From IMG/VR virus record IMGVR_UViG_3300045988_164636, positions 1 to 64,000 of that record: DNA of 64,000 bases, one strand, 5' to 3'. Under the pieces are notes generated by a model. It was not told the origin of the DNA and ran no database searches. It saw only the letters and a program-made list of their open reading frames with translations. The position numbers and the translations under genes are program-made. The DNA comes from a virus. Below, piece after piece: positions 1 to 64,000 of the stretch. How positions within the stretch are numbered: position 1 is the first letter of the stretch; every line of letters begins with the position of its first letter.

Positions 1-111
1 CAGTACAAGTTATATATAACTAACTTTAGCAAGTTAAAGTGCTAAAGTAAGCCCTATATATAATACCTATTTAAAAGAAAAAAGGCACTTTAACACTTTA
101 AAGTGTTAAAA

Positions 112-180
112 AAAAATCCCAATGAAAAAATTTTTAAAAACCTATTGACAAACAAAAAAATCTGTGATAGAATATAGACA
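112..180 (+). repeat. 69-nt promoter cassette, copy 1 of a tandem duplication
   Basis: String AAAAATCCCAATGAAAAAATTTTTAAAAACCTATTGACAAACAAAAAAATCTGTGATAGAATATAGACA occurs identically at 112-180 and 199-267. Confidence 0.9.
145..173 (+). promoter_or_regulatory. early promoter TTGACA-17-TGaTAGAAT
   Basis: -35 at 145-150, TG at 165-166, -10 at 168-173, 17-nt spacer. Confidence 0.7.
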
Positions 181-198
181 GTCAATCAGGCGAACGGA

Positions 199-267
199 AA
201 AAATCCCAATGAAAAAATTTTTAAAAACCTATTGACAAACAAAAAAATCTGTGATAGAATATAGACA
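199..267 (+). repeat. 69-nt promoter cassette, copy 2
   Basis: Identical to 112-180; period 87 nt. Confidence 0.9.
232..260 (+). promoter_or_regulatory. early promoter (duplicate of 145-173)
   Basis: Same sequence inside repeat copy 2. Confidence 0.7.
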
Positions 268-330
268 AGCAAGAAAAACACGGTTAAGCCGAAACCACCG
301 AAAAGTGTTTCGGGGAAAAGGATATCTACA

Positions 331-672
331 ATGTATACGATAATCAATTCGTTAATCGCAAGCGTAAAGCCCATAACCGCTGAATACTCACCTGACGCTT
401 TAAGCCGTCTCGTAGACTTAGAAAAAATCGCTGACGATTATGCAAGCTATGACTATATCGACACACGCTATAGCGATATGTCGGAAATTGACGAAATAAT
501 GGATAGTCTTATAAGCGACCTTGAGAACGATTTTTACACCGATACCGGTATATATGACAAGTCAAACGCTGATAAAGTTATCAATACTGTATATGATATT
601 TTTACCGCATTTGCAAGTTGGACGGACGACATGTCAAGCAATAGCCATTCTGTAAGTTTTTGGAACGCATAA
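331..672 (+). CDS. hypothetical early protein, strongly acidic (D/E/Y-rich)
   Basis: 113-aa ORF directly downstream of the duplicated promoters; no recognisable family. Confidence 0.6.
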   Translation: MYTIINSLIASVKPITAEYSPDALSRLVDLEKIADDYASYDYIDTRYSDMSEIDEIMDSLISDLENDFYTDTGIYDKSNADKVINTVYDIFTAFASWTDDMSSNSHSVSFWNA

Positions 673-678
673 CGGTTA

Positions 679-4029: not shown

Positions 4030-4058
4030 ACGGCGGAATAAAATCCGCCGTTCTTTTA
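4030..4058 (+). terminator. rho-independent terminator
   Basis: ACGGCGGA / TCCGCCGT stem followed by a T run. Confidence 0.75.
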
Positions 4059-5922: not shown

Positions 5923-5955
5923 AAGGCGGAAATACCTAATCCGCCTTTATATTTT
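5923..5955 (+). terminator. rho-independent terminator
   Basis: AAGGCGGA / TCCGCCTT stem followed by a T-rich tail. Confidence 0.75.
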
Positions 5956-17879: not shown

Positions 17880-17910
17880 AAGGCGGCGTGTAGTCCGCCT
17901 TTATTTTTTT
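17880..17910 (+). terminator. rho-independent terminator
   Basis: AAGGCGG-CGTGTAGT-CCGCCTT followed by a T run. Confidence 0.8.
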
Positions 17911-19677: not shown

Positions 19678-20100
19678 ATGGCTGATAAGAAGTTTACAAA
19701 GATTGATATGTTCAACACAATTATTAATGTTATCAATGAGGTTGAGATTGCGGCAGATGAGAACACTCCCTCAACAGATGAAGTTATTGACTGGTGCAAG
19801 GGTCAAATTGAGGTAGTAGAAAAGAAGGCAAGCAAGGCAAGAGAAACTGCCGCAAAGAAGAAGGCAGAAAATGATGTATACAAGGAAAGAGTATATGATT
19901 TTATTACTAATTCAGAAGAGCCTGTAACTGCGGACGATATAGTTGCAAATATAGGTGAGGAAAGTTTTACGAAGGCTAAGGCAGTAGCAAGATGTACAGC
20001 TCTTGTTAAGGAAGGTCGTATCACTAAGGAAGAGATTAAAGTAAACAAGGTGCGTAAGATGACTTATCAGGTTGCTGAAACTGAGGAGGAAGAGGCGTAA
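19678..20100 (+). CDS. winged-helix-like protein, family copy 3
   Basis: MADKKFTKIDMF...; C-terminal EPVTADDIV...LVKEGRITKEE and acidic tail as in 4439 and 10182. Confidence 0.6.
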   Translation: MADKKFTKIDMFNTIINVINEVEIAADENTPSTDEVIDWCKGQIEVVEKKASKARETAAKKKAENDVYKERVYDFITNSEEPVTADDIVANIGEESFTKAKAVARCTALVKEGRITKEEIKVNKVRKMTYQVAETEEEEA

Positions 20101-20118
20101 GCCTCTTTTCTTTTTAAT

Positions 20119-20934
20119 ATGAAGAAATGTTTAGTATATTTCCGCAATAGTCAATATGATATGAGTGCGGAAGAATTAATTATTCAATTTAAAGAGTCAG
20201 ATAAATGGCAAGATTTTTTAAATTTACATTCAAATCAAAAGGTTATTGTGCCTGTTGATAACGCAAATAACTTTGAATATGTTTTAAAACAAGTTAATAA
20301 TCCATTTAATTTAGTATTTATGTTTAGTCCAGATATGGAATGTTTAAATGTAGTTACTAAGATATGTAAAGAAAGCGGCATCCCCTACTTTTATGATACC
20401 ATAGTCAAGGATTGGGAAACATTATATCAAATTATGAATGAAGGTGTATATAGTATTTACATAGGCGGAGATTTAGGATTTGATCTGCCGCTTATTAAGA
20501 AAATTTATTCATCTTTTGACACATCAATAAGAGTGATTGCAAATAGTAATATTAAAGACATTTATTCCTTTTTTATTAGACCAGAAGATTTAGAACTTTA
20601 TGCCCCTTATGTTGATATTGTTGAAATGCGGTTTCCGCATGATAAGCCTGAATTGCAAGATAACTTATTTAATGTATATTTTGAACAAAAGAAATGGAAT
20701 TATGATATTAGTTATCTTACTTTTGACGAAATTAAGTTTCCGAATCAATATATGGAAACAATATTTGGAATAAAAAGGTTGCATTGTCATCATAGATGTA
20801 TGAGGGGTAAACAGTGTGATTTGTGTGGGGCATTGGTAAATTTTTCCAATACGCTTAATGAACATAAGGAGGAATTATTAAATGGCAGCAAGAGGACAGA
20901 AGATAAAGACTCAGATAATGCAGAAGATACTTGA
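20119..20934 (+). CDS. hypothetical protein with C-terminal Cys/His cluster
   Basis: 271-aa ORF; HCHHRC-x5-C-x2-C near the C-terminus. Confidence 0.55.
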   Translation: MKKCLVYFRNSQYDMSAEELIIQFKESDKWQDFLNLHSNQKVIVPVDNANNFEYVLKQVNNPFNLVFMFSPDMECLNVVTKICKESGIPYFYDTIVKDWETLYQIMNEGVYSIYIGGDLGFDLPLIKKIYSSFDTSIRVIANSNIKDIYSFFIRPEDLELYAPYVDIVEMRFPHDKPELQDNLFNVYFEQKKWNYDISYLTFDEIKFPNQYMETIFGIKRLHCHHRCMRGKQCDLCGALVNFSNTLNEHKEELLNGSKRTEDKDSDNAEDT

Positions 20935-21169
20935 TACTTTTGAAGGTAGTTTTATAAATGATAAAGAAATACGAATATGCGGAGAAGAAGATGGGTATCC
21001 TATACAGATTAAGGTAGCATTAACTGCGGCAAAGGAAAATATTGACAATCCAAATGAGATAGGATATGAGCCGCCACAAGCCGCAGACTCCGCAGATACA
21101 GTAGAGGTAAGTATTACATCAGAAGAAAAGAAGACAGTAGCTCAGCTATTGGCAGGTTTAGGCTTATGA
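20882..21169 (+). CDS. hypothetical protein
   Basis: 95-aa ORF with strong RBS AAGGAGGA; overlaps the end of 20119-20934 in another frame. Confidence 0.55.
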   Translation: MAARGQKIKTQIMQKILDTFEGSFINDKEIRICGEEDGYPIQIKVALTAAKENIDNPNEIGYEPPQAADSADTVEVSITSEEKKTVAQLLAGLGL

Positions 21170-27275: not shown

Positions 27276-27349
27276 GTGGATGTCGGTTAATGGTAAGCCT
27301 CCAGATCTGGGTTCTGGGTACGAAGGTTCGATTCCTTTCATCCGCACCA
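27276..27349 (+). tRNA. tRNA-Pro (UGG) with C33
   Basis: Acceptor GTGGATG/CATCCGC, D GGTT/AGCC, anticodon stem CCAGA/TCTGG with loop UCUGGGU, T GAAGG-TTCGATT-CCTTT, A73, CCA. Confidence 0.75.
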
Positions 27350-27673
27350 GCCGCAGTTGGTTATTACGAATCTGCGATGAAAACAAAATTTGTAATAAAT
27401 ATAAGAATGGTAGTTTAATAAAAATTCTGTCATATGCGGAGATGCAGGTAAAGAATCCTGAACGTTCTTATTTTAAATGTAATTACATTTTTGTCTTTTG
27501 GGTTTATTTAGACAATAAAGAAAATAAAACAGCATAAGCTACGCTATAGGAGCTGTACTGTGAGTTCAGGTAAAAACTTCGACTTTATTAACTAAGACGT
27601 GAGGGAGTTAATCGGCTTATGAAATTTCGATGACGGGAAATTTTAGGGTTGCAACCTTGATAGCAGTATATAC
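27350..27673 (+). ncRNA. ORF-free 324-nt spacer, candidate structured RNA
   Basis: No credible ORF; starts with GCCGCAGTT as does the spacer at 33677; local hairpins. Confidence 0.3.
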
Positions 27674-27750
27674 AGGGGAGTATCCGAATTGGCATAGGAG
27701 TTAGTTTCAAACACTAAATTATAAGGGTTCAAATCCCTTCTTCCCTACCA
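27674..27750 (+). tRNA. class I tRNA with anticodon CAA (Leu codon UUG), short variable loop
   Basis: Acceptor AGGGGAG/CTTCCCT, anticodon stem TTAGT/ACTAA, loop UUCAAAC, variable ATTAT, T AAGGG-TTCAAAT-CCCTT, A73, CCA. Confidence 0.7.
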
Positions 27751-27755
27751 TTAGA

Positions 27756-27986
27756 AGAGCTGGTTAGTTTAATGGCTAAAACGAAATCGAGTCGTTAAAT
27801 GATAAATTCAAGTATTCTTTTGAAATTTAGTTCATTTCAACTGAATAAACTAAATTTATTGATTTAAATGTCAAACGGATCCAATTGAGGTGCACCAATT
27901 TTTTACTGACGGATTTAGAAGTTAGAACTAAGAACTTCATTGACACAACAAGATTTAATGCGGGTTCGATTCCCGTACTGGCTCTT
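27756..27986 (+). ncRNA. tRNA-like element with about 160-nt insertion
   Basis: 5' AGAGCTG + D-like TTAG/CTAA + hairpin AACGA-AATCGAG-TCGTT; 3' GCGGG-TTCGATT-CCCGT + TGGCTCT pairing with the 5' end (2 G-U pairs). Confidence 0.3.
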
Positions 27987-27991
27987 AATAT

Positions 27992-28116
27992 GTGGAGGTA
28001 GCCCAACGGCAGAGGCAATGGACTTGTGGAGTGATCGGTATCATTAATTGGTTCAACTCCAATACTTCGCACCAAAAATCCATTCAGTGTGGGTTCGAAT
28101 CCCATTCTCCGCACCA
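27992..28116 (+). tRNA. tRNA interrupted in the anticodon loop by a 49-nt tRNA-like minihelix (28026-28074)
   Basis: Outer acceptor GTGGAGG/TCTCCGC, anticodon stem ATGGA 28018-28022 / TCCAT 28079-28083, T GTGGG-TTCGAAT-CCCAT, A73, CCA. Insert has its own acceptor GTGGAGT/ACTTCGC, T arm ATTGG-TTCAACT-CCAAT and A-CCA. Confidence 0.6.
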
Positions 28117-44251: not shown

Positions 44252-44518
44252 TTAATTTAAATAAGCTTTTCCGCCAAAAGCTCCATTGAAAGTTATTCTT
44301 AAATTATTATTATCTATATATTCAACTGCGCCCATTACTTCATTATTAGCACTATCTATAATGGTAACAGATGGATATTTTTTCATATTATGCTGAATCT
44401 CCCAAACACTTGCGGCAATTGCTTGCTCATATATAAAAGTATCTGTTAGTATTTTTATCTTTTGAAAGACGTGTTTTACGCCTTCTTCATCTAAATAATT
44501 TTTTGTACTATCTGCCAA
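44252..44518 (-). CDS. hypothetical structural-module protein
   Basis: 88-aa ORF, RBS AAGGGGGAA. Confidence 0.5.
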   Translation of the reverse strand: MADSTKNYLDEEGVKHVFQKIKILTDTFIYEQAIAASVWEIQHNMKKYPSVTIIDSANNEVMGAVEYIDNNNLRITFNGAFGGKAYLN

Positions 44519-44530
44519 GTTAATTCCCCC

Positions 44531-47272
44531 TTAAACAAAAACTTCATTCCAAATATTATCTAAAGCCTCATTTGATATTGATGAACCTAATAACACTCCA
44601 TCGCCATTGATGATGTTACCGGCTATAGTTAAATTACCTTGATAATCTAATTCAAGAGCATTAGATCTTTTTTCATCAGATATACCATTTCCCGCAATAA
44701 ACAAATGATATGACTCTTCATATAAGGTTTCATCAATAGTATCTCCTGTAAAAATTATTCTATCACCATCTTGATTATAATATTTTTTACCTTTAACCCA
44801 TTCTGTATCAGATGTTTTAACATATTCTCCAGATGAATTTAATTCATAATAATCTTTTGGAGAGCTTGGTTTATAAAACTCTATAATAATTTTATTCTTA
44901 CCTTTGGAATCAAAATAATATATTTTATCACTTTGAATAGTATTATCTGATGTTAAGAAAAAAGTTTTTGTATCTTGATTAAATTCACCTATGATAGTTG
45001 CAGATTTTTTAGATTGATTATGAATAAGATAATTACCTAAAAGATTTTGTAGACTACCTTTTATATTATTACCATTGCCTATTACAAAATTATTCGCTCC
45101 TTCAATACTGTTTAAACTATTAAAAGCAGTATTACAAGAGCCAGTTATCTTTTGCCCCGTGCCCGCAACAATATTATAATTTCCACTAATATTTGAATTT
45201 CCACCGCCAATTAAATTGTAGCTTCCAGAGCAATCTTGATCTCCACCCATTAATAAATTATAATCGCCAGAAAAAGAAGAAGTGCTGATAGTACTGGCTA
45301 TATTACCTATCCCAGAAGACATTTGCAATCCATTTGATAAAATTAAATTATAACGTCCAACTATTTCATTATCTTGACCAGATATAATTTGCCCACCACC
45401 ATCAACATCATTTCGTTCTCCACAAATGATATTTTCGTAAGAGCCACTATTAAATCCTACTCTATTTCTCATTCCAGAGATGATAGAACGATTATCATTT
45501 TGAATAGTATTTTCTAATCCAGATATAATACTATGAGAGCTACTACTTATTTCATTCGATTGTCCACTTACAAAAATATTATTAGAATTATTAATTTTAT
45601 TATAATAACCACTGGAATGACAAGCATTTCCACCAATAATTTCATTACCTTGATTTTCCACATGATGATAATGACCGCCTATAATTTTAGTATAAAAACC
45701 TTCTGCATGGCTAGTTTGTGCATTATCAATAGTTGCACCATGTCCTTCTACATGGCTCCCCATTCCTCCATTAAGCAAGGTATTAGAAAAACCTTCTGCG
45801 TGTCCAGAATTTGTATTTTCTAATCTATTTCCATGTCCTTCAACATGAGCCGCAGTATTTTTTAAATTACTATTATTAAAACCTTCCGTATGAGTAAATT
45901 CACCTTTAGCTTGGTTATTATATCCTTCAATATGGTTATATGCGTAACGTTCATTTCCTATTTTTTCATTAGAATTTTTTTTAACCCACTTTTGATTATC
46001 GCCTTGAAAAATATAAGATTCAATTCCTGCAGCATGATTTTTTTTATAGAATTCAGATTGAGTTAATATATTATTATCACTGATATATTCTTTATTTAAA
46101 TATATTGTAAATGAATCCCCATTTTCCGCATTTGCAATAGTAATACCATATTTAGATAAATCTACTTCATTATCATCTAAGTACCATTTTTGAGAAATAA
46201 TTGTACCTGTATTATTAATTTCTTCCACATAAGTAAAAAACATCTCATTTTTTGAATAATCAACAGTAGCATTAATTAATATTAAAGAATTAAATTCTAC
46301 AGTTAAAGATTCTGATTTAATTAATTCTATAGTATAATTATTTAAATATTCCCAATTTAAATTAGATTGATTATTATATTCTGCTATATTAGTAATATCA
46401 GTTCCATAAACTACGTTTTCTTTTGTTGCGGCAGACGGATGTGATAAATAAATTTTATTTATTAATTGGAAAGAACCGTCTTGATTTGTTAAATTTTCAA
46501 TAGTTAAAACATTTGCCGCATCATAGTGTATACAAAATAAATTATTTCCTATTTCTTCATCTTTTGTAAAACTATATCCAAAATTATTTTCATTATTTAA
46601 ATATATTGTAGTAATATAATTATTATCTTGTGCTTCAAGAGTATTGATTGATAATAATAAATTTACACTATCAATAGAAAGAGGAAATGTCTTAGCTAAA
46701 TAATATCCAGTATTATTATATATTGTTAAATTGTCTGGATTTTCTGGAATATTTGCGGAAGTGTATAATTTAATAGAATTGACATCTTCTTGAAAAATAT
46801 TTGTAAGCATTAAATTAATATCTTGATATAATGTTAAATCAATTTCATCTCTTACTATGGTATACCAGTTATTATTCTTTTGAATATAATTATAATTGAA
46901 AATATCTATATTAACTGAATAACTTTCAACTATAAAAGATTGCGGCAGATTAATATCTTGTAAACTAAAAATTAATTCTTCATTATTAATATGATAGTTA
47001 TTACTATTTTCAACTAAATTAATTAATTTAATATTAGAAGAAATATTTAAGATAGGATTACCTGCATAGGCGTAATATTTGTCAGTAGTATCTGCAATTA
47101 TATTCTTTCCGCCTTCAATGTGATTATAAGGTCCAAGAGCAAGATTACTCTCATAGTCATTAAATATCTCACTCGTATAATATCCTTCTTGATATTCACC
47201 AACATCTTTTTGTCTAAGCCAAGATGTAACTTGATATAATCCTTCTCCATCTAAATATCCATTCTCCGCCAT
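44531..47272 (-). CDS. large tail fibre / receptor-binding protein with SHAEG / G-x-x-N solenoid repeats
   Basis: 913 aa; repeats HVEGHGN..NTNSGHAEGFSN..., ISGQSNEISSSSHSIISGLEN..., YadA-head-like periodicity. Confidence 0.7.
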   Translation of the reverse strand: MAENGYLDGEGLYQVTSWLRQKDVGEYQEGYYTSEIFNDYESNLALGPYNHIEGGKNIIADTTDKYYAYAGNPILNISSNIKLINLVENSNNYHINNEELIFSLQDINLPQSFIVESYSVNIDIFNYNYIQKNNNWYTIVRDEIDLTLYQDINLMLTNIFQEDVNSIKLYTSANIPENPDNLTIYNNTGYYLAKTFPLSIDSVNLLLSINTLEAQDNNYITTIYLNNENNFGYSFTKDEEIGNNLFCIHYDAANVLTIENLTNQDGSFQLINKIYLSHPSAATKENVVYGTDITNIAEYNNQSNLNWEYLNNYTIELIKSESLTVEFNSLILINATVDYSKNEMFFTYVEEINNTGTIISQKWYLDDNEVDLSKYGITIANAENGDSFTIYLNKEYISDNNILTQSEFYKKNHAAGIESYIFQGDNQKWVKKNSNEKIGNERYAYNHIEGYNNQAKGEFTHTEGFNNSNLKNTAAHVEGHGNRLENTNSGHAEGFSNTLLNGGMGSHVEGHGATIDNAQTSHAEGFYTKIIGGHYHHVENQGNEIIGGNACHSSGYYNKINNSNNIFVSGQSNEISSSSHSIISGLENTIQNDNRSIISGMRNRVGFNSGSYENIICGERNDVDGGGQIISGQDNEIVGRYNLILSNGLQMSSGIGNIASTISTSSFSGDYNLLMGGDQDCSGSYNLIGGGNSNISGNYNIVAGTGQKITGSCNTAFNSLNSIEGANNFVIGNGNNIKGSLQNLLGNYLIHNQSKKSATIIGEFNQDTKTFFLTSDNTIQSDKIYYFDSKGKNKIIIEFYKPSSPKDYYELNSSGEYVKTSDTEWVKGKKYYNQDGDRIIFTGDTIDETLYEESYHLFIAGNGISDEKRSNALELDYQGNLTIAGNIINGDGVLLGSSISNEALDNIWNEVFV

Positions 47273-48831: not shown

Positions 48832-50022
48832 ATGTTAAACCCCAAAACTCAAGAAAGAGAACTTTGTTATGTAGTTGAAATTAATGATATTCAGCCTATT
48901 CCTAATTATGATAGAGTTGAATTAGCAACGGTAAATGGTTGGCATATCATCGTTCAGAAGAATCAGTTTAAGGTCGGAGATAAGGCTGTTTATTTTGAAG
49001 TAGATTCAAGAGCACCTGAAAGTGCGGAATTTGATTTTCTTGCCAAGAGAAAGTATAAAATTAAGACTTTAAAAATGTGCGGCTGCATTTCTCAAGGATT
49101 ACTTATGTCTTTTGCAGATTTTGGTTTTGCAGAAGATGAATATAATATAGGAGATTTTTTAACTAAGAAATTAAATGTTACTTATGCTGATGATGAAGAT
49201 AATGCAAGAAAGGCACCTTCCGCAGATAAGTATAAAAAGATGGAAATGCGTCATAAAAAACTTTTTAAAAATTCTTTTGTAAAGAAAGTTATGCAGTATG
49301 AAGTTGGACGTAAGATAATGTTTGTTTTCTTTGGTAAGAAGAAAGATAAGAAGTCAAGTTTCCCTAACTGGGTTGTGAAAACTGATGAAGAAAGAGCCGA
49401 AAACCTACCCTATCTATTTAATAGCAAGAATAGAGAATCTATGCATTGGATGGTTACAGAAAAGATTGATGGAACTTCTGCAACATTCACTTTGAAGAAG
49501 ATAGGTAAGCATAAGTACGATTATCGAGTATGTTCAAGAAATGTATGTTTTGATAAGCCTGATAAGAAATGCTTCTATGAAACAAATGTGTATACTGAAA
49601 TTGCAGAAAGATATAATATGGAGCAGAAACTTAAGCAGCTATTTGAAATAAGTGAAGATATAGTTTTTGTTACAATTCAAGGCGAAATATACGGGAAAAA
49701 AATCCAAAAGAGAGATTATAATATGGAAGGAACAGATCTTGCTATTTTTAATGTTATTTTTGGTTATAAAGATGGTTCAACAGAAAGGTTAAATCCTCGT
49801 GAAATGGAAGTCATTATGAAGATATATAATCTTCCTACTGTTCCAGTCCTTGATTATAACTTTACTTTACCTGTAACTTGTGATGAAATGTTAGAATATG
49901 CGGCAAGTGAAAAATCAAAAATAGACGGCGGTATGCGTGAAGGTGTTGTATTAAGAAGTTTTGATGGTAAGCAATCTTTTAAGGCTGTATCAAGAGATTT
50001 CTTACTCAAATATCATAGTTAA
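48832..50022 (+). CDS. ATP-dependent RNA ligase, Rnl5 (DraRnl/NgrRnl)-type
   Basis: N-terminal OB-like ...VVEINDIQPIPNYDRVELATVNGWHIIVQK; motif I KIDGTS; IQGEIYG; EGVVLR...FKAVS. Confidence 0.8.
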   Translation: MLNPKTQERELCYVVEINDIQPIPNYDRVELATVNGWHIIVQKNQFKVGDKAVYFEVDSRAPESAEFDFLAKRKYKIKTLKMCGCISQGLLMSFADFGFAEDEYNIGDFLTKKLNVTYADDEDNARKAPSADKYKKMEMRHKKLFKNSFVKKVMQYEVGRKIMFVFFGKKKDKKSSFPNWVVKTDEERAENLPYLFNSKNRESMHWMVTEKIDGTSATFTLKKIGKHKYDYRVCSRNVCFDKPDKKCFYETNVYTEIAERYNMEQKLKQLFEISEDIVFVTIQGEIYGKKIQKRDYNMEGTDLAIFNVIFGYKDGSTERLNPREMEVIMKIYNLPTVPVLDYNFTLPVTCDEMLEYAASEKSKIDGGMREGVVLRSFDGKQSFKAVSRDFLLKYHS

Positions 50023-50874: not shown

Positions 50875-51204
50875 ATGATAAGTAGATTTTTTTGTTGTGA
50901 ATGTGGTCAGGAAGGAATACCAATCTTCCGCAAACCAAGCTGTAAAAGAGAAAGAGGTCATTTAAAAAATTTATTTTGTGTACATTGTGGACGAGAAACT
51001 AATCATGTCGAGATAAAAGAAAATGACTTTGAATATACCTATGAAGATTTTGAAAAAGAATTTAAATTAGGTAGATTTATTAATGGAAAACGCATTCCAG
51101 TTAATGAATTGCAATACTGTAGCAATATTAATTGTAGTAGATATGTAAATGGCAAATGTTGGGATGCCGCAAATATTTCAAACTGTAAATATAAGGAGGG
51201 ATAA
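50875..51204 (+). CDS. zinc-ribbon protein
   Basis: CCECG ... CVHCG plus C-terminal Cys cluster. Confidence 0.55.
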   Translation: MISRFFCCECGQEGIPIFRKPSCKRERGHLKNLFCVHCGRETNHVEIKENDFEYTYEDFEKEFKLGRFINGKRIPVNELQYCSNINCSRYVNGKCWDAANISNCKYKEG

Positions 51205-51205
51205 A

Positions 51206-51760
51206 ATGTCTATCTTAATAACATCAGATCTTCACTTGAATCATGATAAAGATTTTATTTATGGCTCAAGAGGATATTCTACTGTAAAAGAAATGAATGA
51301 AGATATAGTAACGAAGTGGAACATGACTATTGATAATAAAGATACAATTTATGTTCTCGGTGACATTATGATGGGTAAGGACATAGAAACTGCCGCACAC
51401 TATTGGAATAAATTAAAGGGCGATAAAAAAATAATCTTAGGTAATCATGATTCTAAGAAAAAAATTGAATTGTATCAAACCTGCCCTAACACAGAAGTAA
51501 TTGGATATGGCGGAATTATTAAATATAAAGGGTATAGATTTTATTTATCTCATTATCCTGCTCTTTGCGGAAATGCAGATGATAGAGATTTAAAATCTTG
51601 TACAATTAATTTATGTGGACATAAACATACTAAAAATGCTTTTGAAGATTGGAATTTAGGAAAAATTTATCATATTGAATTAGATACTAATTTTATGTAT
51701 CCTTGTGACTTGGACTTAATTTTATTTAATATAAAGGAGAAAATGAGAAATGACTTTTAA
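51206..51760 (+). CDS. metallophosphoesterase (second copy, different family member)
   Basis: Start at MSILITSDLHLNHD after AAGGAGGGA; GDIMMG, GNHD, GHKH. Confidence 0.7.
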   Translation: MSILITSDLHLNHDKDFIYGSRGYSTVKEMNEDIVTKWNMTIDNKDTIYVLGDIMMGKDIETAAHYWNKLKGDKKIILGNHDSKKKIELYQTCPNTEVIGYGGIIKYKGYRFYLSHYPALCGNADDRDLKSCTINLCGHKHTKNAFEDWNLGKIYHIELDTNFMYPCDLDLILFNIKEKMRNDF

Positions 51761-54830: not shown

Positions 54831-56342
54831 ATGAAAAATAATATTAATTATTCTGCTGATTCAGTCCAGACGTTGATTGGACTGGAGCCTTTTAGAAAAT
54901 CTCCCGGTATGTATATTGGTGATACTGGAGAATATGGACTTCATCATATAGTTAAAGAGATTATTAATAATTCGGTAGATGAAGCTTTAAATGCCAATTG
55001 TACACATATTAATATAACATTGTTAAAAGATGGCGGAGTTCAGATTGAAGATGATGGACGAGGTTTCCCGCATGGAATGTTAGACGATACATTTTCTATT
55101 TTAGGAGGATGTTTCGGAAAGGAACATACCGGAGGAAAGTTTAACAATAATGGTGAATCAGGATATAATACTTCTGGTGGTATGCATGGTATAGGATGTA
55201 AATGTGCTGCAGCTCTTGGTATTAAAACTATAGCTATTTCGCATAGAGATGGTATTGAAGAAATAGTTGAATTTTCAAGAGGTAAAATGATTAAGCAGAT
55301 AACTGATAATAAATGTGATTCTAATTTGCATGGAACTTTAGTTATTTGGTATCCAGATCCAGAAATATTTAAGACAACAATTACATTCAATAGAGAAAAG
55401 ATTGAAAAAGAATTCTGTCAAGAATACAGTTTTTTAAATAGCGGATTATATTTTACCATTAAAGATGAGAGAACAAATTATTATAAAGAATATTATTCAA
55501 AAAATGGTATTGAAGATTACTTAAATTATTTAAATAAAGATAAGACTTATATTTTACATCCAGTGTGTTTTTCTGCGGAAGAAGGAAATTATAGTATTGA
55601 ACTTGGAATTGCTTATAATACGGAATATTCTAATTCAATAAGATTATATACTAATAGTATCCCTCAAACAAAAGGAACTCACTTAACTGGATTTAAAACA
55701 GCTTGGACTTCCGCAATTAATAAGTTTGCAAAAGAAAATAAATGGTTAAAAGCAAATGATAGTAATTTATCTGGTGATGATTTATTAGAAGGTCAGCTTT
55801 TGATAATAAACTTTAAAATGGTTGACCCTATTTTTGAAGGACAGACAAAAGAAAATTTAACCTCGGCGGAAGGTAGAACTTATACTCAGAAATTGATTTC
55901 TTCTTCTTTTGAAGAAATATTCAATAGCCGCAAAAACGAAATTAAAACAGTAGTTGATAAGGCAACAAGTGCAAGAAAAGCAAGAGATGCCGCAAAAAAG
56001 GCAAGAGAAAGAATAAGAGAAGGAAATAAAAAAGGATTAAAGGCAAAAATGGCAATCAGTAAAAAATTTGTTGATTGCATATCTAAAAATCCTGCGGAAA
56101 GAAATCTTCTCTTGGTTGAAGGAAATAGTGCGGCAAGTAGTGCAATTGAAGCAAGAAACGCAAAGACTGATTGTATTTATATGTTAAGAGGTAAAGTTGT
56201 AAGTCCGCTAAAAACTCCAATTGATAAACTTTTAGCTAATCAAGAAATTTCAGATATAGTTAAGGTAATTGGAGCTGGATTTGGTAACGACTTCGATGTG
56301 AATAAGATGAACTTTGATAAAATCGTTATAACCTCGGATGCT
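54831..56342 (+). CDS. gyrB: type II topoisomerase B subunit (GyrB/ParE-like), exon 1
   Basis: GLHHIVKEIINNSVDEA ATPase motif; Toprim EGNSAASSA; ends ...KIVITSDA just before the DxD motif. Confidence 0.85.
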
Positions 56343-57394
56343 AAGAGAATGAAATTGGCTGTGTAATACCTTTCAAGTTTACCACTTGGGTAACTTTATA
56401 TAAACCATCTTAGTCATTTTTGAATGAGATATAGATGGAATTAATATAAAGTTGCTAACGGGGAAACCTGACCAGATAGTGCTGAAGGTAATCCCGTGGC
56501 AAACATTATTTAATTCCTTATTATTATTAAAAGGAGAAAACATATAATGATAGGAATTTATAAAATCACTAACAAAAATACAGGTAAAGTTTATATCGGG
56601 CAATCTGATAATATTGAAAGAAGATTAAACGAACACAAACAAAAAAGAACTCAAACAATAGATAATTATATCAATGTTTTGGGTGTAGAAAATTTTGATT
56701 TTGAAATTTTGGAAGAATGTAAGAAAGAAGATTTAGATTTAAAAGAAAAGGAATATATTAAAAAATATAATTCTCAAATTAAAGGATATAATATTCAACA
56801 AGGTGGGTATAATAATTCTCAAGGTGAAGGTAATGGAAGAGCTCTTTTAACGGAGGCAGATGTTATCTTTATCAGAACAGCTTATCAAAATCATGAATCG
56901 CCAAAAGAAATTTTTGAAAAATATTTTTCAGACAAAATAACAAAAAATAATTTTCAAAGTGTTTGGCAAGGAAGAACTTGGATAAATATTATGCCAGAAG
57001 TTTATACTGAAGAAAATAAGAAATATTATATTTCTGGACAACAAAAAGCAAAATCTTCTCTTTCAAAAGAAGAAGTTCTCTTATATAGACAATATTATGT
57101 TGATCATACAAGAGAAGAAGTTTATCAAAAGATGTTATCTGATAAAGGCGATATTTTAAAAAAAGCTACTTTTTTTAAAATATTAATAGGTGATGTCAGA
57201 GATAATAGTATTTATAAAGAAATTCCAATTTATAAAAAATCAAAAAAGTGTTGGGAATTAAATAATGAGGCTGTATCGACTATCCCCGAATCGGGGGAGT
57301 AGAGCTATTATTGGTACATAGTTCGAAATGGTATCCTTAGTTTTATAGACTAAGTAAGAGATAGTCAGGGCTTATAGAAATATAAGAATAACCG
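56343..57394 (+). mobile_element. group I intron carrying a GIY-YIG homing endonuclease
   Basis: Follows exon T 56342 and ends in G 57394; P4-like ACGGGGAAACC / AATCCCGTGG; AAGAGATAGTCAGGG S-like element; joining the exons restores ITSDA-DSDG-LDIELLLVTFFFTYMRPL. Confidence 0.8.
56547..57302 (+). CDS. GIY-YIG homing endonuclease (intron-encoded)
   Basis: GIYKITNKNTGKVYIGQSDNIERRLNEH. Confidence 0.85.
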   Translation: MIGIYKITNKNTGKVYIGQSDNIERRLNEHKQKRTQTIDNYINVLGVENFDFEILEECKKEDLDLKEKEYIKKYNSQIKGYNIQQGGYNNSQGEGNGRALLTEADVIFIRTAYQNHESPKEIFEKYFSDKITKNNFQSVWQGRTWINIMPEVYTEENKKYYISGQQKAKSSLSKEEVLLYRQYYVDHTREEVYQKMLSDKGDILKKATFFKILIGDVRDNSIYKEIPIYKKSKKCWELNNEAVSTIPESGE

Positions 57395-57793
57395 GATTCA
57401 GATGGGCTAGATATTGAACTTCTTCTAGTTACATTCTTCTTTACCTACATGAGACCACTTGTAGAAGCTGGTAAATTATATAGAGCGGTAACCCCTCTTT
57501 ATATAATCAAAAATGGTAAAGAAAAAGTATATATATATTCAGAAGATGAGTTTACAGATTGGAAGACCAGACATGGTAACCCTACCGAGATATTACGAGC
57601 GAAGGGTCTAGGAGAGTTAGACGCAACCGTACTTCACGAGGTATGTTTCGAGAACCAAAGATTTAGGCGAATTACGATTTCAGATGTAGACCAAGCGGCC
57701 GCACTTCTTGATACATTACAGGGTAAAGCAGTTGAACCTCGTAAAAAGTATATTTATGAAAATGCGGAACATTTAGGATTTAATTTTGATTAA
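57395..57793 (+). CDS. gyrB: type II topoisomerase B subunit, exon 2
   Basis: In-frame DSDGLDIELLLVTFFFTYMRPLVEAGKLYRAVTPLY..., the GyrB C-terminal Toprim/tail pattern. Confidence 0.8.
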   Translation, partial: DSDGLDIELLLVTFFFTYMRPLVEAGKLYRAVTPLYIIKNGKEKVYIYSEDEFTDWKTRHGNPTEILRAKGLGELDATVLHEVCFENQRFRRITISDVDQAAALLDTLQGKAVEPRKKYIYENAEHLGFNFD

Positions 57794-57806: not shown

Positions 57807-60176
57807 ATGAGTTTAATTACAGAAAATGATATATTAAATGAAGCAAAAGATTGTTTCTTAGGATACGCTTCAGAAGTTTTAACAGATAGAGCAATTCCTG
57901 CGGCGGAAGATGGATTACTTTCCGCACAAAGGAAAATTATATGGACTCTTGAAGATTATCTTAAAATGAATAGTAAGAGTAAGACAAAGAAGTGTCAAGC
58001 TATTGTTGGGTCAACTCTAGCTACATCATATTATCACGGTGATGCCGCTTGTTATGGAGTTTTATGCAAAATGTCTCAACCTTACCTTATGAGGTACCCC
58101 CTCATTGATGGACAAGGTTCATTAGGTACACAGGAGGATAATGACCTCGTTGCTTCTTCAAGATATACGGAGGCTAGACCCTCTAAATATTCTGACCTAA
58201 TGATGAAAGATTTTAAGAAAAAAGTTGTTCCATTAAAAGAAACATATAATGGAGAATTTATGGAGCCTGTAGTTCTTCCATCTTTATTTCCTAATGCTAT
58301 ATGTAATGGTAGACAGGCTATCGGCATCTCAATGTCTCATACATCGGCTCCACACAATCTCGGAGAAGTATGCGATGCTATCATAACTTATCTTAAACAA
58401 AATAAGTCTATAACTTTAGATGAACTGTTAGATATAATGCCCGGACCAGATTTCCCACTTCCTAATACTATTATAAATAAGAAGGACATTCGTACAGCTT
58501 ATGCAACAGGGCATTCCGCAGTTTCTCTTAAAATAAGAGGTCATTATGAAATTAAAGGTCAGAATTTAATTTTTACAACTATTCCATATAGAACTTATAG
58601 AAATAAGATAAAAGAACAAATTGAAAAGAATGTTGATGAATTAGATAAATATATTGATGATTTTGATGATGAATCTGCTCTTGGAGAAAATAAATTAGTA
58701 TTTAGATGTAAGAAGAATGTTGACCCAGAAGCAGTTGCACAAAAATTATTTGCATTAACAGATTTACAAACAACTTTATCTTACAATATGAACTTTATTG
58801 TAGATGGAACACCTAAAATGTGTTCAATGATAGATTTAATTAAATCTTATGTAAAGCATCAAGAAAATATTATAATTAAGATTGCGGAAGATGATAAAAG
58901 TAAAGCAGAATTAAAAAAGCATACTACAGAAGGGCTTATTATAATTTTAAATGATATTGACAATGCTATTCAGATAATAAAAAATTCAGAAAATAGGAAC
59001 ACCGCAAAAATTTCTTTAATGAATCATTATAAATTAACAGATGTTCAGGCGGATGCTGTTCTTGATATGAAGTTAGTAAAACTTACTAAATTAGATAAAG
59101 ATGAATTATTAAATTTATTAAAAGAATTAGAAGTTATAATTGCGGAATGTAATAAACTTATTTCTGATGAAGAATACAGAGCAAATCATTTAATTGAAAA
59201 AGTGCGGGAAATGAAAAGTAAATATGCAGACCCCCGCAGAACTATACTTACACAAATTGATGTATCAAAAGAAGAAAAAGAAGTTGCAGAAATTATACCT
59301 GAAGATTGTGTAGTTATTATTACAAGAAATGGTATGATAAAGAGGATTCCTTCACAATCATTTAAAGTACAAAAGAAAAATGGTAAGGGAGTAAAAAATG
59401 CGGAAGATACTTTATTAACTACTATATCAACTAATACTATTGATACTTTAATGCTTTTTACTGATAAAGGAAAGATGTATAGAGTTTCAATTAATGAGAT
59501 CCCAGAAGGAACAAACACTGGAAAAGGTAGTTTAATTAGTTCTATTGTATCAACAGAACAAGATGAAAAGGTTATTGCCGCAACATCCTTATACCATAAA
59601 AGTAAAGCTAAGTATGTTATCTTTATAACAAAAAATGGTATGATAAAGAAAACCGCCTTAAGTGAATATGAAGGTGGAAAAAAGAAAACTGGTATAGTGG
59701 CAATTAAATTTAAAGATAATGATACTCTTGCTAATGTTACTTTTGCGGAAGAAGAAGATTTTATTGTTATTACTAAAAATGGCATGGGCATAAGAATAGA
59801 AAGTAAGAGTATTTCTCCAATAGGTAGAGTATCTATGGGAGTGAAGGCAATTAAGCTCAATGATAATGATGAAGTTTTATGCGGACTTCCTATTCATAAA
59901 AATAGTGATAAATTAGCTCTTTTTACTATTGACGGATTAGGCAAAAAAATAGCCTTAAATGAACTTTATACACAAGGTAGAGGCGGAAAAGGTATCATCC
60001 TTTCGAAGGAACATCTTGCTGGAGCATTATTAATTGATAATAAAGATATTATATTAATTAATGGTAAGCCTAATTTAATATGTATAGCGGCAGAAGATAT
60101 ACCTGAATGTTCACGAATTGCCGCAGGCAATAAGATTATTAAAGGTAGTATAATTGAGTCTGTTGTTAAATTATAA
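57807..60176 (+). CDS. gyrA: type II topoisomerase A subunit (GyrA/ParC-like)
   Basis: AIPAAEDGLLSAQRKIIW; active site SSRYTEAR; beta-pinwheel C-terminal repeats; QGRGGKG GyrA-box-like motif. Confidence 0.85.
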   Translation: MSLITENDILNEAKDCFLGYASEVLTDRAIPAAEDGLLSAQRKIIWTLEDYLKMNSKSKTKKCQAIVGSTLATSYYHGDAACYGVLCKMSQPYLMRYPLIDGQGSLGTQEDNDLVASSRYTEARPSKYSDLMMKDFKKKVVPLKETYNGEFMEPVVLPSLFPNAICNGRQAIGISMSHTSAPHNLGEVCDAIITYLKQNKSITLDELLDIMPGPDFPLPNTIINKKDIRTAYATGHSAVSLKIRGHYEIKGQNLIFTTIPYRTYRNKIKEQIEKNVDELDKYIDDFDDESALGENKLVFRCKKNVDPEAVAQKLFALTDLQTTLSYNMNFIVDGTPKMCSMIDLIKSYVKHQENIIIKIAEDDKSKAELKKHTTEGLIIILNDIDNAIQIIKNSENRNTAKISLMNHYKLTDVQADAVLDMKLVKLTKLDKDELLNLLKELEVIIAECNKLISDEEYRANHLIEKVREMKSKYADPRRTILTQIDVSKEEKEVAEIIPEDCVVIITRNGMIKRIPSQSFKVQKKNGKGVKNAEDTLLTTISTNTIDTLMLFTDKGKMYRVSINEIPEGTNTGKGSLISSIVSTEQDEKVIAATSLYHKSKAKYVIFITKNGMIKKTALSEYEGGKKKTGIVAIKFKDNDTLANVTFAEEEDFIVITKNGMGIRIESKSISPIGRVSMGVKAIKLNDNDEVLCGLPIHKNSDKLALFTIDGLGKKIALNELYTQGRGGKGIILSKEHLAGALLIDNKDIILINGKPNLICIAAEDIPECSRIAAGNKIIKGSIIESVVKL

Positions 60177-60674: not shown

Positions 60675-62621
60675 ATGAGTAGATTAGAATCATTAATCGA
60701 AGAATTAAATACTGCATCATATAATTATTATAATGGGTTGCCACTTTTAATGTCAGATGAAGAATATGATAAGAAGTATGATGAATTAAAAGAAATTGAA
60801 AAGTCAACTGGACTTATATTATCTAATTCTCCGACCCAAAAAATTGGAGCTTCAATTCTTCCTAATTTGAACAAAATTACTATTACTGATAGACCAATGT
60901 TATCATTAGATAAATGTCACACAATAGAAGAATTAGAAAAATTTTCTAAAAATCAGCTTATGTGTGCAACTTGTAAATGTGATGGTTTATCTGTAAGAAT
61001 TATCTATGAAAACGGAAAAATTGTTTCCGCAAATACAAGAGGAAATGGATTTGAAGGACAGGACATAACTGAGCATATTAAGCATTTTCTTAATGTTCCT
61101 CTCGTAATTCCGACAAGAGATAGGGTAATTGTTGATGGTGAAGCAATAATCTTCATTAAAGATTTTGAAGAAATAAATATAAACAAGGAATTTAAAAATC
61201 CTCGTAATCTTGCGGCAGGTACTTTAGCTAGTCTTGATACTTCACTATGCACTTCTCGAAGAATGAGATTCATAGCTTGGGATTTAATTCAATATGGAAA
61301 TATACAATTTGAAGAATATAATGAAAAATTTGATATTTTATATGATTTAGGTTTTGAATTTGTTATAGGTAATCTAGCTATGGCAGAAGAGTTTGATTAT
61401 ATGAATGATTTATTAAAAGCACAAGCTGCACGATATGCAAGAAAAGGATTACCAATTGATGGTATTGTTTGGCGATTTAATGATGAAAATTTCGATACAA
61501 CTCGTACAGCTAAATTCTTTAATAATGCTATAGCATTTAAGTTTAAAGATGAGGAAGCAGTAAGTACATTATTGGATATAGAGTGGAGCATGGGTAAAAC
61601 TGGAGTTCTTACCCCCGTAGCAATTTTTGAACCCGTAGAACTAGAAGGAACAGAAGTATCTAGGTCTAGTATTCATAATGTAAATATTATGAATGATTTA
61701 GCTCCTAATGGGTGGTATAAGGGATCAAGAGTAACAATTGTTAAATCTAATCAAATAATTCCGCAAATTATAAAAGTAGAACCTCCGAAATTTATTGATA
61801 GTGATGAAATACTTGAACCACCTTTAATGTGTCCGATTTGCGGAAAACCCACATTGATAGAAGATACTGGAAACAGTTTGGTTCTCGTATGCAAAAATCC
61901 AGATTGTGAAGGACAATTATTAAATAGAATTGACCATTTTGTTGGAAAAAAAGGACTAGATATAAAAGGATTATCAAAAGCAACTATTTCTAAATTAATT
62001 TCTTGGAATTGGTTAAATAATATTGATGATGTATTTAATTTGAAAGAATACCGGCAGGAATGGATAAAAAAATCTGGTTTTGGAACTGCTTCTGTTGATA
62101 AAATTTTAAATAAAATAGAAGAAAGAAGAAATGATTGTGAATTATGGCAATTTATTTCTGGGTTAAGTATACCTTTAATTGGTTCAACTTATGCAAAACA
62201 ACTTGCCGCATATTTTAAAACTTGGGATAATTTTTTAAATGCAATAAATCATCATTTTGATTTTTCTTCTCTTGAAGGATTTGGTGATGAGATGCATCGT
62301 TCATTGACAACTTATAATTATACAATAGCATCAAAAATTGCTTCCTTGTTAATTTTTAAAGAAAAGAAAGAAGAATTATCAGATGAATGCAAAGGTTCTA
62401 CTTTCTGTATTACAGGTAAATTATCTCATTTTAAAAATAGAGATGAACTTAAAACTTTGATTGAAAAATGCGGCGGCAAGGTTACTGGAAGTGTAACAGC
62501 TAAAACATCTTTTTTAATTAATAATGATGTTAATAGCAATTCAGCAAAAAATGTTGCCGCACAAAGATTGAATATTCCAATTCTTACAGAAGAAGAATTT
62601 TTAAATATGGTGGGCAAATGA
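60675..62621 (+). CDS. ligA: NAD-dependent DNA ligase
   Basis: Ia domain YYN...MSDEEYD; KCDGLS; TRGNG; Zn finger CPICG...CKNPDC; HhH region; C-terminal BRCT. Confidence 0.95.
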   Translation: MSRLESLIEELNTASYNYYNGLPLLMSDEEYDKKYDELKEIEKSTGLILSNSPTQKIGASILPNLNKITITDRPMLSLDKCHTIEELEKFSKNQLMCATCKCDGLSVRIIYENGKIVSANTRGNGFEGQDITEHIKHFLNVPLVIPTRDRVIVDGEAIIFIKDFEEININKEFKNPRNLAAGTLASLDTSLCTSRRMRFIAWDLIQYGNIQFEEYNEKFDILYDLGFEFVIGNLAMAEEFDYMNDLLKAQAARYARKGLPIDGIVWRFNDENFDTTRTAKFFNNAIAFKFKDEEAVSTLLDIEWSMGKTGVLTPVAIFEPVELEGTEVSRSSIHNVNIMNDLAPNGWYKGSRVTIVKSNQIIPQIIKVEPPKFIDSDEILEPPLMCPICGKPTLIEDTGNSLVLVCKNPDCEGQLLNRIDHFVGKKGLDIKGLSKATISKLISWNWLNNIDDVFNLKEYRQEWIKKSGFGTASVDKILNKIEERRNDCELWQFISGLSIPLIGSTYAKQLAAYFKTWDNFLNAINHHFDFSSLEGFGDEMHRSLTTYNYTIASKIASLLIFKEKKEELSDECKGSTFCITGKLSHFKNRDELKTLIEKCGGKVTGSVTAKTSFLINNDVNSNSAKNVAAQRLNIPILTEEEFLNMVGK

Positions 62622-62806
62622 GAAAAAACCAATTAAAGAATTTATCAAATAAAATTGCAGCACTTGAAAATGAAATAAGATTAGGTAATAATATAGAAAA
62701 AAATGAAAAAGAAATTACTATATTGATGTCAAGACTATCTTTTCAAGAGCTGATACAACTTGAGGAATATTTATCAAATATTTTTGACAATAGCGAAAAT
62801 TTTTGA
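62618..62806 (+). CDS. hypothetical coiled-coil small protein
   Basis: 62-aa ORF, ATGA overlap with ligA. Confidence 0.45.
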   Translation: MRKNQLKNLSNKIAALENEIRLGNNIEKNEKEITILMSRLSFQELIQLEEYLSNIFDNSENF

Positions 62807-62812
62807 TATAAT
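62784..62812 (+). promoter_or_regulatory. early-type promoter TTGACA-17-TGaTATAAT
   Basis: -35 at 62784-62789, -10 at 62807-62812; AAAAATCCCAAAAA box downstream at 62836. Confidence 0.7.
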
Positions 62813-62884
62813 ATATAAGTAATAAGGGAAAAGAAAAATCCCAAAAACAAAAATATTTTTTAGATTTAAAGGAGAAAAAAGGTT

Positions 62885-63163
62885 ATGACAGATAACGCTA
62901 TTAAGGTATTTAACTACATCAAGGAAAACGAAGATAAGAACATTACAGCAGCAGATATTGCTGAAGCAACTGGACTTAATAAGAAGTCAGTAGATGGTAC
63001 AATTACAATGTCGCTTTACAGACATAAGGATGCAGATAAGAATGAAATTCCCCTTGCAGTTCGTGTAGAAGGCGGAGTTGAAGTTGTAAATGGTAAGCCC
63101 AAGGTAATTAAGTATATTAAGCTTACAGATGCAGGTAGAGAATTCGTTCCTACAGAAGACTAA
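62885..63163 (+). CDS. small winged-helix protein (family copy 4)
   Basis: ITAADIAEATGLNKKSVDGTI...; resembles the C-terminal domains of 4439, 10182 and 19678. Confidence 0.55.
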   Translation: MTDNAIKVFNYIKENEDKNITAADIAEATGLNKKSVDGTITMSLYRHKDADKNEIPLAVRVEGGVEVVNGKPKVIKYIKLTDAGREFVPTED

Positions 63164-63227
63164 TTCTATAAATAAAATAAGGAGAAGTAATTTTTGCTTC
63201 TCCTTTTTCTTATTATAAGGAGAAATA

Positions 63228-64000
63228 ATGATCTGGATAATTTTATGTGTTATAATATGCGGCGGCATCATAGTGGCAGCCGCAATTATAAGTAGTAAAT
63301 TAATAAAGAAGATAAAAAAACAATATAATGAACATTTTGAATTATCTAAAGATTTAGAAAAGTTAAAAAATGAAATCTCAAAATGGGATAAAGAAAGAGA
63401 ACAACTTTTCATTTCTAAATTTAAATTGATAACAGAAGTAAATAATTTAAATGAAAAAAGAAACAATTATGTAAATGATATTATAAAAGTAAAAGACGAA
63501 ATCCTTGCGGGCTATCAATCTTATGAAGATAATTTAAATAAGCAATATTTATCTATTGAAGATGATTTTGATAAAAAAATAAGTAATTTACAAGAACGAT
63601 ATGAAAATACTTGTAGTCAGTATTTCTGTGAATTAGAAAAAGCAAAGTTGGAATTAGACAATATAAAAGAAAAAAGAAAAAGAACAGTAGAAGTTTTAAA
63701 TAGAGAACAAACAGAATTAGAAGATGAAGAAAATCATCGTTTAAAAATTACAGCGGCAGATATTGCAGATATAAATACATTAGAAAAAATCCGTCCACAA
63801 CTTTCTAAACCAAGAGTATTAAGTATGTTAATATGGAGTACTTGGTTCCAAAAACCTATGACAGAACTATGCAATAAATTAATTGGTACTTCTGTAAAAA
63901 GTGGGGTTTATAAGATTACTAATATTTTGACTAATGAATGTTATATAGGTCAGGCGACCGATCTAGCTAAAAGACTAAAGGAACACGCTAAATGCGGCTT
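63228..64000 (+). CDS. TM + coiled-coil (DUF4041-like) protein with C-terminal GIY-YIG/T5orf172-type motif; 3' end outside the window
   Basis: Open frame from ATG 63228 (RBS AAGGAGAAA) to the window end; N-terminal TM IWIILCVIICGGIIVAAAII; ...SGVYKITNILTNECYIGQATDLAKRLKEH. Confidence 0.6.
   Translation, partial: MIWIILCVIICGGIIVAAAIISSKLIKKIKKQYNEHFELSKDLEKLKNEISKWDKEREQLFISKFKLITEVNNLNEKRNNYVNDIIKVKDEILAGYQSYEDNLNKQYLSIEDDFDKKISNLQERYENTCSQYFCELEKAKLELDNIKEKRKRTVEVLNREQTELEDEENHRLKITAADIADINTLEKIRPQLSKPRVLSMLIWSTWFQKPMTELCNKLIGTSVKSGVYKITNILTNECYIGQATDLAKRLKEHAKCG

Follow-up and report, generated by a model that had tools for sequence, protein, structure and literature searches.

The stretch of DNA analysed here, hereafter the window, comprises 64,000 nucleotides (positions 1 to 64,000 of the IMG/VR virus record IMGVR_UViG_3300045988_164636), has a G+C content of 30.0% and is part of a large tailed phage. 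The tetranucleotide GCGG and its complement CCGC, together called the word below, are found at 355 sites dispersed in both orientations over its entire length (1 to 64000), as established by k-mer counts, shuffles and bin counts. Comparison with a sister contig indicates that the word is very probably maintained in this lineage by a directional force acting at the level of the DNA, and from the substitution patterns this force would appear to be natural selection for the density of the sites. The phenomenon belongs to a known kind, that of the genome-wide selected short words such as Chi and uptake sequences. It is unusual in that the word has only 4 bp, is non-polar, resides in a phage and is of opposite sign to the restriction avoidance of the same genome.

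On the plus strand, 182 GCGG and 173 CCGC were counted, corresponding to approximately 5.5 sites per kb or one site per 180 bp. The numbers expected for GCGG and CCGC were 41 and 24 in a zero-order model, 44 and 32 in a first-order (dinucleotide) model, and 88 and 78 in a maximal-order Markov model. The enrichment is thus 5.5x over composition (355 sites against 65) and 4.7x over dinucleotides, and one third of the CpGs of the window (355 of 1064) lie inside the word. A sequence-only reading of the window had previously ascribed the over-representation to the pentamer TGCGG/CCGCA. The enrichment itself is real, and all 12 sites claimed for the stretch 20100 to 21160 are present (20142, 20167, 20375, 20465, 20488, 20628, 20635, 20979, 21026, 21071, 21081 and 21090), but the pentamer is not its unit. 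Although TGCGG and CCGCA occur in 100 and 101 copies, their maximal-order Markov ratios are 1.16 and 1.20, so nearly all of their abundance is explained by tetramers. Therefore, the pentamer can be ruled out, and the over-represented unit is the tetramer GCGG/CCGC. Its flanks display soft preferences, with T (56%), G (26%), A (16%) and C (0%) at position -1, and A (46%) or C (28%) at position +1, followed by A. A tandem or longer repeat family is also ruled out, as the flank logo is without extended conservation.

The effect of protein sequence and codon usage was assessed with 300 shuffles per null. Of 107 open reading frames (ORFs) called, 102 were left after removal of those overlapping tRNA genes. 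When synonymous codons were shuffled with protein and codon usage kept, CCGC occurred 120 times against an expected 41.2 (z 15.2) and GCGG 168 times against 86.1 (z 12.5), ratios ranging from 1.95x to 2.9x. When the order of the codons was shuffled, the ratios of CCGC and GCGG were 4.7x and 2.8x, and z values across both kinds of shuffle lay between 12 and 20. Under both nulls, GCGG and CCGC are the two most over-represented of all 256 tetramers. The word was found in all three frames and on both strands, including the minus-strand tail and structural genes at 44271 to 47269 (for example at 44271, 46126 and 47266, as had been proposed). In intergenic DNA (12.0 kb, 27.8% G+C, tRNAs excluded), 60 sites were found, compared to 8.9 expected from composition and 13.4 from dinucleotides. 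Here GCGG/CCGC is again the top tetramer (z 12.7; 4.5x over dinucleotides), and its density equals that of coding DNA. The two kinds of shuffle and the intergenic DNA therefore agree in ruling out a codon or dipeptide artefact, in line with the sequence-only reading, and after correction for dinucleotide and codon composition the ratio of the tetramer remains well removed from 1.

Every 2-kb bin of the window is enriched (2.7-9.2x), and the index of dispersion (variance/mean) is 1.02, close to that of a Poisson process. This uniform distribution rules out a localised packaging site, which had been among the functions first suggested. The excess over the synonymous-shuffle null on the sense strand is +82 for GCGG and +79 for CCGC, so that both orientations are alike. 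No orientation skew was seen across the window, and no positional switch of orientation occurs along the 64 kb; between 42 and 46 kb, where 2 GCGG and 13 CCGC lie on the plus strand, the sense strand is once more rich in GCGG. The tRNA genes hold seven of the sites. All other non-palindromic tetramers made only of G and C are somewhat enriched in the window (1.4-2.4x). Of the neighbours of the word, GTGG/CCAC stands at 1.03x, while CTGC/GCAG, one transition away, is enriched 1.9x and is the top tetramer in several relatives. The excess of CTGC/GCAG may be a decay product of GCGG/CCGC or an independent signal.

The word had also been noticed in intergenic hairpins, where it is indeed present, but only in a minority of cases. 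Among sites spaced 6-50 nt apart, 44 GCGG..CCGC pairs were found compared to 18 CCGC..GCGG pairs, so that about 25 pairs are in excess, and these form GC-rich hairpins; spacing is otherwise exponential. Nine of the GCGG..CCGC pairs are intergenic. Examples include a terminator-like intergenic hairpin at 4030 to 4052 whose arms carry the word (ACGGCGGAATAAAATCCGCCGT), hairpins at 5923 to 5948 (AAGGCGGAAATACCTAATCCGCCTT) and 17880 to 17902 (AAGGCGGCGTGTAGTCCGCCTT), and a long one at 35285 to 35322 (AAAATGCGGAATGAT...ATCATTCCGCATTTT). As hairpins account for only about 50 of the 355 sites, hairpins and terminators are ruled out as the source of the enrichment.

The evidence for a force acting on the word comes from the sister contig IMGVR_UViG_3300045988_158359, which was aligned to 37.5 kb of the window at 92.6% nucleotide identity. 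In the sister, 83.9% of the sites of the word are unchanged, which places it third among 128 tetramers. Similar ranks are held by words made only of A and T and by the Shine-Dalgarno word GGAG, and many other CpG-containing or G/C-rich tetramers are conserved at 29-66%, with many of the CpG tetramers at 29-60%. At fourfold degenerate sites, G and C within the word are conserved at 84% compared to 57-59% outside it (Fisher p ~1e-5 each), and in non-coding DNA the corresponding values are 97.7% and 90.0%. The effect persists when sites are stratified by local divergence, being seen in each of the four strata (Mantel-Haenszel odds ratio 0.37), which rules out regional confounding of the test.

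Moreover, changes towards the word and away from it are shifted in opposite directions. NCC followed by GC (NCC|GC) became NCT in 8% of cases compared to 32% in controls, and NCT|GC became NCC in 32% compared to 4.6% (p 1e-6); NGC|GG, NGT|GG and GCA|G behave in the same manner. Among aligned alanine codons of the GCG and GCA types, the share of GCG is 49% before G and 9% otherwise. When the window and its flanks were pooled, C to T differences at the CpG of the word were seen at 3.6-5.4% compared to 20% at other CpGs, and T to C differences creating the word at 9.6-16% compared to 3.1% elsewhere. The outer positions of the word are protected as well, with C to T differences of 0.4% and 0.8% compared to 5.7% for an ordinary C (p 2.5e-5 and 1.7e-4), and outer bases that fall on third codon positions are conserved at 92-96% against a baseline of 70%. 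At all four positions, loss of the word is 4-10x rarer than loss at comparable G/C or CpG sites, and T to C changes that convert the one-step neighbours CTGC and GTGG to the word are 3-7x more frequent than those at other sites. The core is conserved at 0.78-0.87 whatever base stands at -1 or +1. Because gains of the word are elevated too, simple hypomutability of the sites is ruled out. CpG transitions make up most of the strain differences, with 33 exchanges between GCGG and GCAG and 24 between GCGG and GTGG. A separate observation, made in the window and flanks, is that CpGs outside the word are hypermutable, with C differing as T at 20% compared to 5.7% for other C, and that such CpGs stand at about half of expectation.

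Taken as a balance of mutation and selection, the 12- to 30-fold shift between gain and loss would correspond to a scaled advantage of approximately 2.5-3.4 per site. The equilibrium frequencies predicted in this manner are 0.64 and 0.82, compared to observed frequencies of 0.61 and 0.77. Other bacterial words that are kept by selection, namely the DNA uptake sequences, the FtsK-orienting polar sequences (KOPS) and the SpoIIIE recognition sequences (SRS), likewise consist of many dispersed copies kept by a fixation bias regardless of frame. They differ in having 8-12 nt and in lying on cellular chromosomes, and KOPS and SRS are strongly polar, whereas the phage word has 4 nt and no polarity.

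Three results weigh against strong selection on the word everywhere. In the 15 kb that flank the window, the word is conserved at 0.78 compared to 0.56-0.69 for other CpG tetramers and ranks only 84th of 126. Several further lineages of the family show the word evolving no differently from other CpG tetramers, and there the context G_GG still tends towards C. Finally, the substitutions are unpolarised, two strains having been compared without an outgroup, and selection and a word-specific biased repair are therefore not fully separable. In another lineage GCGC, not CCGC, is well conserved and is the best GC-rich tetramer (rank 6-18 of about 131). The force is strongest where the enrichment is strongest, and its target may differ between lineages.

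The distribution of the enrichment among phages follows their relationship. AT-rich phages of Firmicutes with known hosts have ratios over composition of 0.32x (Clostridium phage c-st), 0.41x (Bacillus phage Tsamsa), 0.72x (SPbeta), 0.99x (Staphylococcus phage K) and 1.55x (Enterocloster phage PMBT24), so the enrichment is not generic to such phages. In 58 IMG/VR loci around homologues of the capsid protein (49-98% amino acid identity), the median ratio is 3.2x with a range of 1.3-5.4. More distant gut relatives have approximately 2.1x, a background near 2x is seen in many gut phages, and the sister contig reaches 4.4-6x in every part examined. The enrichment is thus a trait of a phage clade. 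A search of the literature for over-representation of GCGG/CCGC in phages found nothing relevant.

Within the same window, palindromes are depleted: GGCC stands at 0.09x, CGCG at 0.15x, CTAG at 0.23x, GATC at 0.26x, GCGC at 0.34x and CATG at 0.41x. This depletion is the usual footprint of restriction avoidance. The word resembles the targets of such avoidance, as 4-bp specificities containing CpG are among them, but CCGC, which is the specificity of AciI, has the opposite sign, being both enriched and conserved. In the 58-locus survey, CCGC is enriched almost everywhere, GCGC (0.08-3.8x) and CGCG (0-2.6x) vary by lineage, and GGCC and CCGG are mostly depleted. The survey thereby weakens the idea of a generic GCG/CGC or S-CG-S enrichment from which GCGC and CGCG have been removed by restriction avoidance. 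The set of avoided palindromes also differs between lineages of the family (family loci L035-L097), which suggests different host restriction repertoires.

As to function, the word would be recognised by a protein that scans the phage DNA or moves along it, with fitness increasing as copies are added. Among systems in which DNA is protected by additional copies of a short word, Chi with its helicase-nuclease is the best known. By analogy, the phage word could be a minimal Chi-like signal for an AddAB-type helicase-nuclease of a Clostridia host, a proposal held with low confidence although it is the one that we favour. The enzyme would enter at a double-strand end and degrade the DNA until the word is met on the strand ending 3'. 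If so short a word were recognised with low probability at each encounter, every added copy would shorten the stretch destroyed. Were the ends to lie at many positions, either through permutation or through breaks in replicating DNA, both orientations would be needed everywhere. Genome ends at many positions thus predict a uniform and strand-symmetric field, such as is seen. In two contigs of the phage from different samples, with lengths of 118.9 and 126.8 kb, the ligase gene starts at approximately 65 and 112.7 kb, respectively, which is compatible with a circular or permuted map.

The resemblance to the Chi sites of Firmicutes, already pointed out in the sequence-only reading, is borne out. 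The published AddAB Chi sequences are AGCGG in B. subtilis and GAAGCGG in S. aureus, and GCGG constitutes the four 3' bases of both. Like Chi, the phage word is short, over-represented, present at a few copies per kb, mostly located in genes and found in any frame. The known role of Chi is protection against a helicase-nuclease entering at DNA ends, a role that for the phage word is only proposed. Phage K (L028, NC_005880) offers a parallel. In its first 50 kb, all 20 copies of GAAGCGG/CCGCTTC (13 on the plus and 7 on the minus strand) lie between 129 and 7921, within the long terminal repeat of 8486 bp, and none lies in the next 41.5 kb, the number expected from composition being an estimated 0.4 or so per strand. 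For fixed, repeated ends, clustering in the terminal repeat is what end protection predicts, and the arrangement in phage K looks like end protection against AddAB. Additionally, the cultured relative PMBT24 (OQ326496), which has a known Clostridia host, an SPbeta-like replication module and CCGC at only 1.55x, is annotated with a Gam nuclease inhibitor (34047-34538) as well as a gene for 'exodeoxyribonuclease V'. No Gam homologue was found in the parts of the window phage that were searched.

Resemblance alone does not amount to membership, and several properties of the word speak against its being a Chi site. Chi is dependent on orientation and skewed along replication, whereas the phage word is equally frequent, and in equal excess, in both orientations. 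The constrained unit has only 4 nt and is conserved regardless of its flanks, falling short of the 5-8 nt of a Chi. AddAB reads all five bases of AGCGG, whereas four are constrained in the phage, where A at -1 is disfavoured and, of the forms found with A, G or T at that position, AGCGG is the one least favoured. The phage possesses its own Sak4-like annealase, RecJ-like exonuclease, DnaB-like helicase and primase, which makes it less evident that the host AddAB would be needed. In the temperate prototype SPbeta, no enrichment of the Chi of its host is seen. Lastly, in three loci of candidate hosts, whose assignment is weak, the word reaches 2.0-2.2x over composition and is not outstanding. 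The earlier suggestion of a Chi-like signal thus retains the shared core, while the missing skew and unconstrained flanks leave membership in the Chi class only tentative. In wider terms, it is possible, though doubtful, that a clade of large SPbeta-like gut phages carries a selected 4-bp 'self' word, kept at about one copy per 180 bp in either orientation, which would either disarm a host nuclease processing DNA ends, as a minimal and orientation-balanced Chi of gut Clostridia, or be read by a DNA-scanning protein encoded by the phage.

Among the other explanations, the one that survives best, although unlikely, is that a sequence-specific DNA modification enzyme or DNA-binding protein, from phage or host, has the word as its target, with density itself selected. 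With an AciI-type CCGC methyltransferase, for example, a denser mark could shield more of the genome from nucleases. A unit of 4 bp that is independent of flank and orientation fits an enzyme recognising double-stranded DNA. CCGC (AciI) and GCGC (HhaI) are classic 4-bp methyltransferase specificities, so that the word of this lineage and the tetramer conserved in another are of the same type, and the phages of the SPbeta group are known for cytosine methyltransferases. The hypermutability of CpGs outside the word, not shared by those inside it, also fits. The possibility of a methylation target had been raised in the sequence-only reading, and it is kept here, but neither C5 motifs (PCQxFS, ENV) nor N6/N4 methyltransferase motifs were found in approximately 82 of the 127 kb, comprising the window and its flanks, or in the family loci L001-L098. 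Moreover, restriction-modification targets are normally depleted in phages, as GGCC, CGCG, GCGC and GATC are here, whereas the word is enriched. We also know of no precedent for selection raising the number of modification sites.

A non-adaptive origin, in which a mutation or repair bias specific to the word produces the pattern, is improbable. Vsr-like repair in combination with host methylation of CCGC, resolving T:G to C:G and so both generating and maintaining the word, would be one example. In E. coli, such very short patch (VSP) repair reportedly shifts oligonucleotide abundances, a finding attributed to Bhagwat and McClelland (1992). The Dcm/Vsr system of that species (CCWGG) is similar in that a word of methyltransferase type is enriched as T:G is resolved to C:G, with gains and losses that are mainly CpG transitions. 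The predominance of CpG transitions to and from GCAG and GTGG among the strain differences is in agreement with such a bias, as are the raised T to C and lowered C to T changes exactly at the two CpG cytosines. The outer positions, untouched by VSP repair, are nevertheless protected even more strongly than the inner ones, and the T-containing precursors are not depleted, CTGC/GCAG being in excess and GTGG/CCAC at expectation. An enrichment of 5x is also far above the effect on CCWGG. As the predictions of precursor depletion and of a bias confined to the methylated cytosine have failed, classical VSP-type repair can be rejected. No C5-methyltransferase motif was found in the approximately 82 kb and the family loci scanned, and no Vsr was found by Pfam in window ORFs of at least about 145 amino acids. 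The enrichment furthermore tracks the phage clade across lineages with different restriction avoidance, and hence probably with different hosts.

Slightly less probable still is a role of the word as the preferred start site of the phage primase or another replication enzyme, its high density on both strands securing frequent priming of the lagging strand in a very AT-rich genome. A primase site was likewise among the four functions first suggested, none of which had been preferred. Phage primases read words of 3-5 nt that differ by group (GTC in T7, GTT/GCT in T4 and GCA in SP6). The phage encodes its own primase of 363 amino acids (phrog_47), and the enrichment follows the phage clade and not AT-rich phages generally. 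Yet one site per 360 nt on each strand is far denser than Okazaki priming needs, and selection per site for priming should therefore be negligible. To our knowledge, the words read by known primases have not been reported as enriched in their genomes. A primer templated by the word would presumably begin with a pyrimidine, which is unusual, and the strand asymmetry that rolling-circle replication would favour is not seen.

That the enrichment is an artefact of composition, arising from codon or dipeptide usage, clumping of G+C, terminator hairpins or tRNA genes, is very improbable: the mild excess of other G/C-only tetramers, some GC-rich hairpins, the few tRNA sites and the 2x background of gut phages point in that direction, but the signal remains after both shuffles and at equal density in intergenic DNA, the hairpins hold few of the sites, and the other G/C-only tetramers do not reach a similar enrichment or conservation.

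In phage genomics, short words have mostly drawn attention by being absent, as in the avoidance of restriction sites and of protospacer adjacent motifs. In the present case a word has accumulated and been preserved, including at synonymous and intergenic sites, in a group of abundant and uncultured gut phages. If the proposal of a selected 4-bp 'self' word is true, it would represent the first case in which positive selection has saturated a phage genome with a tetranucleotide instead of purging it of one. If the reader of the word is the host AddAB, GCGG would be a candidate Chi for gut Clostridia, for which we know of no experimentally defined Chi; it would also provide a sequence-based handle for host prediction and a rule by which plasmid or phage DNA could be designed to survive in such bacteria. 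Should the word be read by an enzyme of the phage or by a modification system, it would point to an undescribed mechanism of protection or replication. The rates of gain and loss at synonymous sites between sister strains also represent a simple test for any k-mer anomaly.

The phage carrying the window has a genome of approximately 127 kb and comes from gut metagenomes. According to exact-protein look-ups, the window corresponds to about 52-116 kb of the 126.8-kb contig ena:ERZ27290380:k141_186936, and near-identical contigs are present in other samples. The window encodes GyrB, GyrA, an NAD-dependent ligase, an RNA ligase, PhoH, RNase H, a GH25 lysin, tail-fibre-like proteins and 12 tRNAs. 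The flanks encode YonB (the major capsid protein), YonD, YonG, the portal, YorF and YorH, together with the Sak4-like annealase, the DnaB-like helicase, the adjoining primase and the RecJ-like exonuclease. From these structural and replication genes, the phage is classified by sequence as an SPbeta-like siphophage. Megablast found no close relative of the window among GenBank phages, and its GyrA and DUF2828 proteins have at most 36% identity to the closest GenBank phage proteins. The nearest named relative of the capsid protein (L034 195-1217, left of the window) is that of the gut phage phAss-1 (OQ749652), with 49% amino acid identity. Hosts of phAss-1 were tentatively proposed among Clostridia/Eubacteriales by its describers, who also reported that its TAG stop codon is reassigned (PMC10607447). 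The window reads normally with the standard code, and ARAGORN found no suppressor tRNA among the 12 tRNAs. A host search by means of the lysin gave only weak matches, to metagenome-assembled genomes of Acutalibacteraceae and Ruminiclostridium.

Several other features of the phage were observed. The gyrase genes are interrupted: the N-terminal part of GyrB (54831-56366) is followed by an ORF for a GIY-YIG homing endonuclease (56547-57302), a separate C-terminal GyrB piece of 114 amino acids (57449-57793) and gyrA (57807-60176). A possible RNA-repair or tRNA module comprises the 12 tRNA genes (27276-34993), an AAA_33 kinase-like protein (32743-33198), a DUF2828/TROVE-like 'RNA-binding' protein (35598-37073), the RNA ligase, which has an OB (oligonucleotide/oligosaccharide-binding) fold (48832-50022), and a metallophosphatase (51149-51760). 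Strains are polymorphic for a LAGLIDADG endonuclease ORF that splits the Sak4-like (AAA_24) gene in one contig, the gene being intact in the other (L032 16289-18341 vs L031 16289-17275). In the left flank, a protein of 352 amino acids (L034 8358-9416) matches the phage sigma-factor family phrog_5767, which suggests that the phage may redirect the host RNA polymerase for its late genes.

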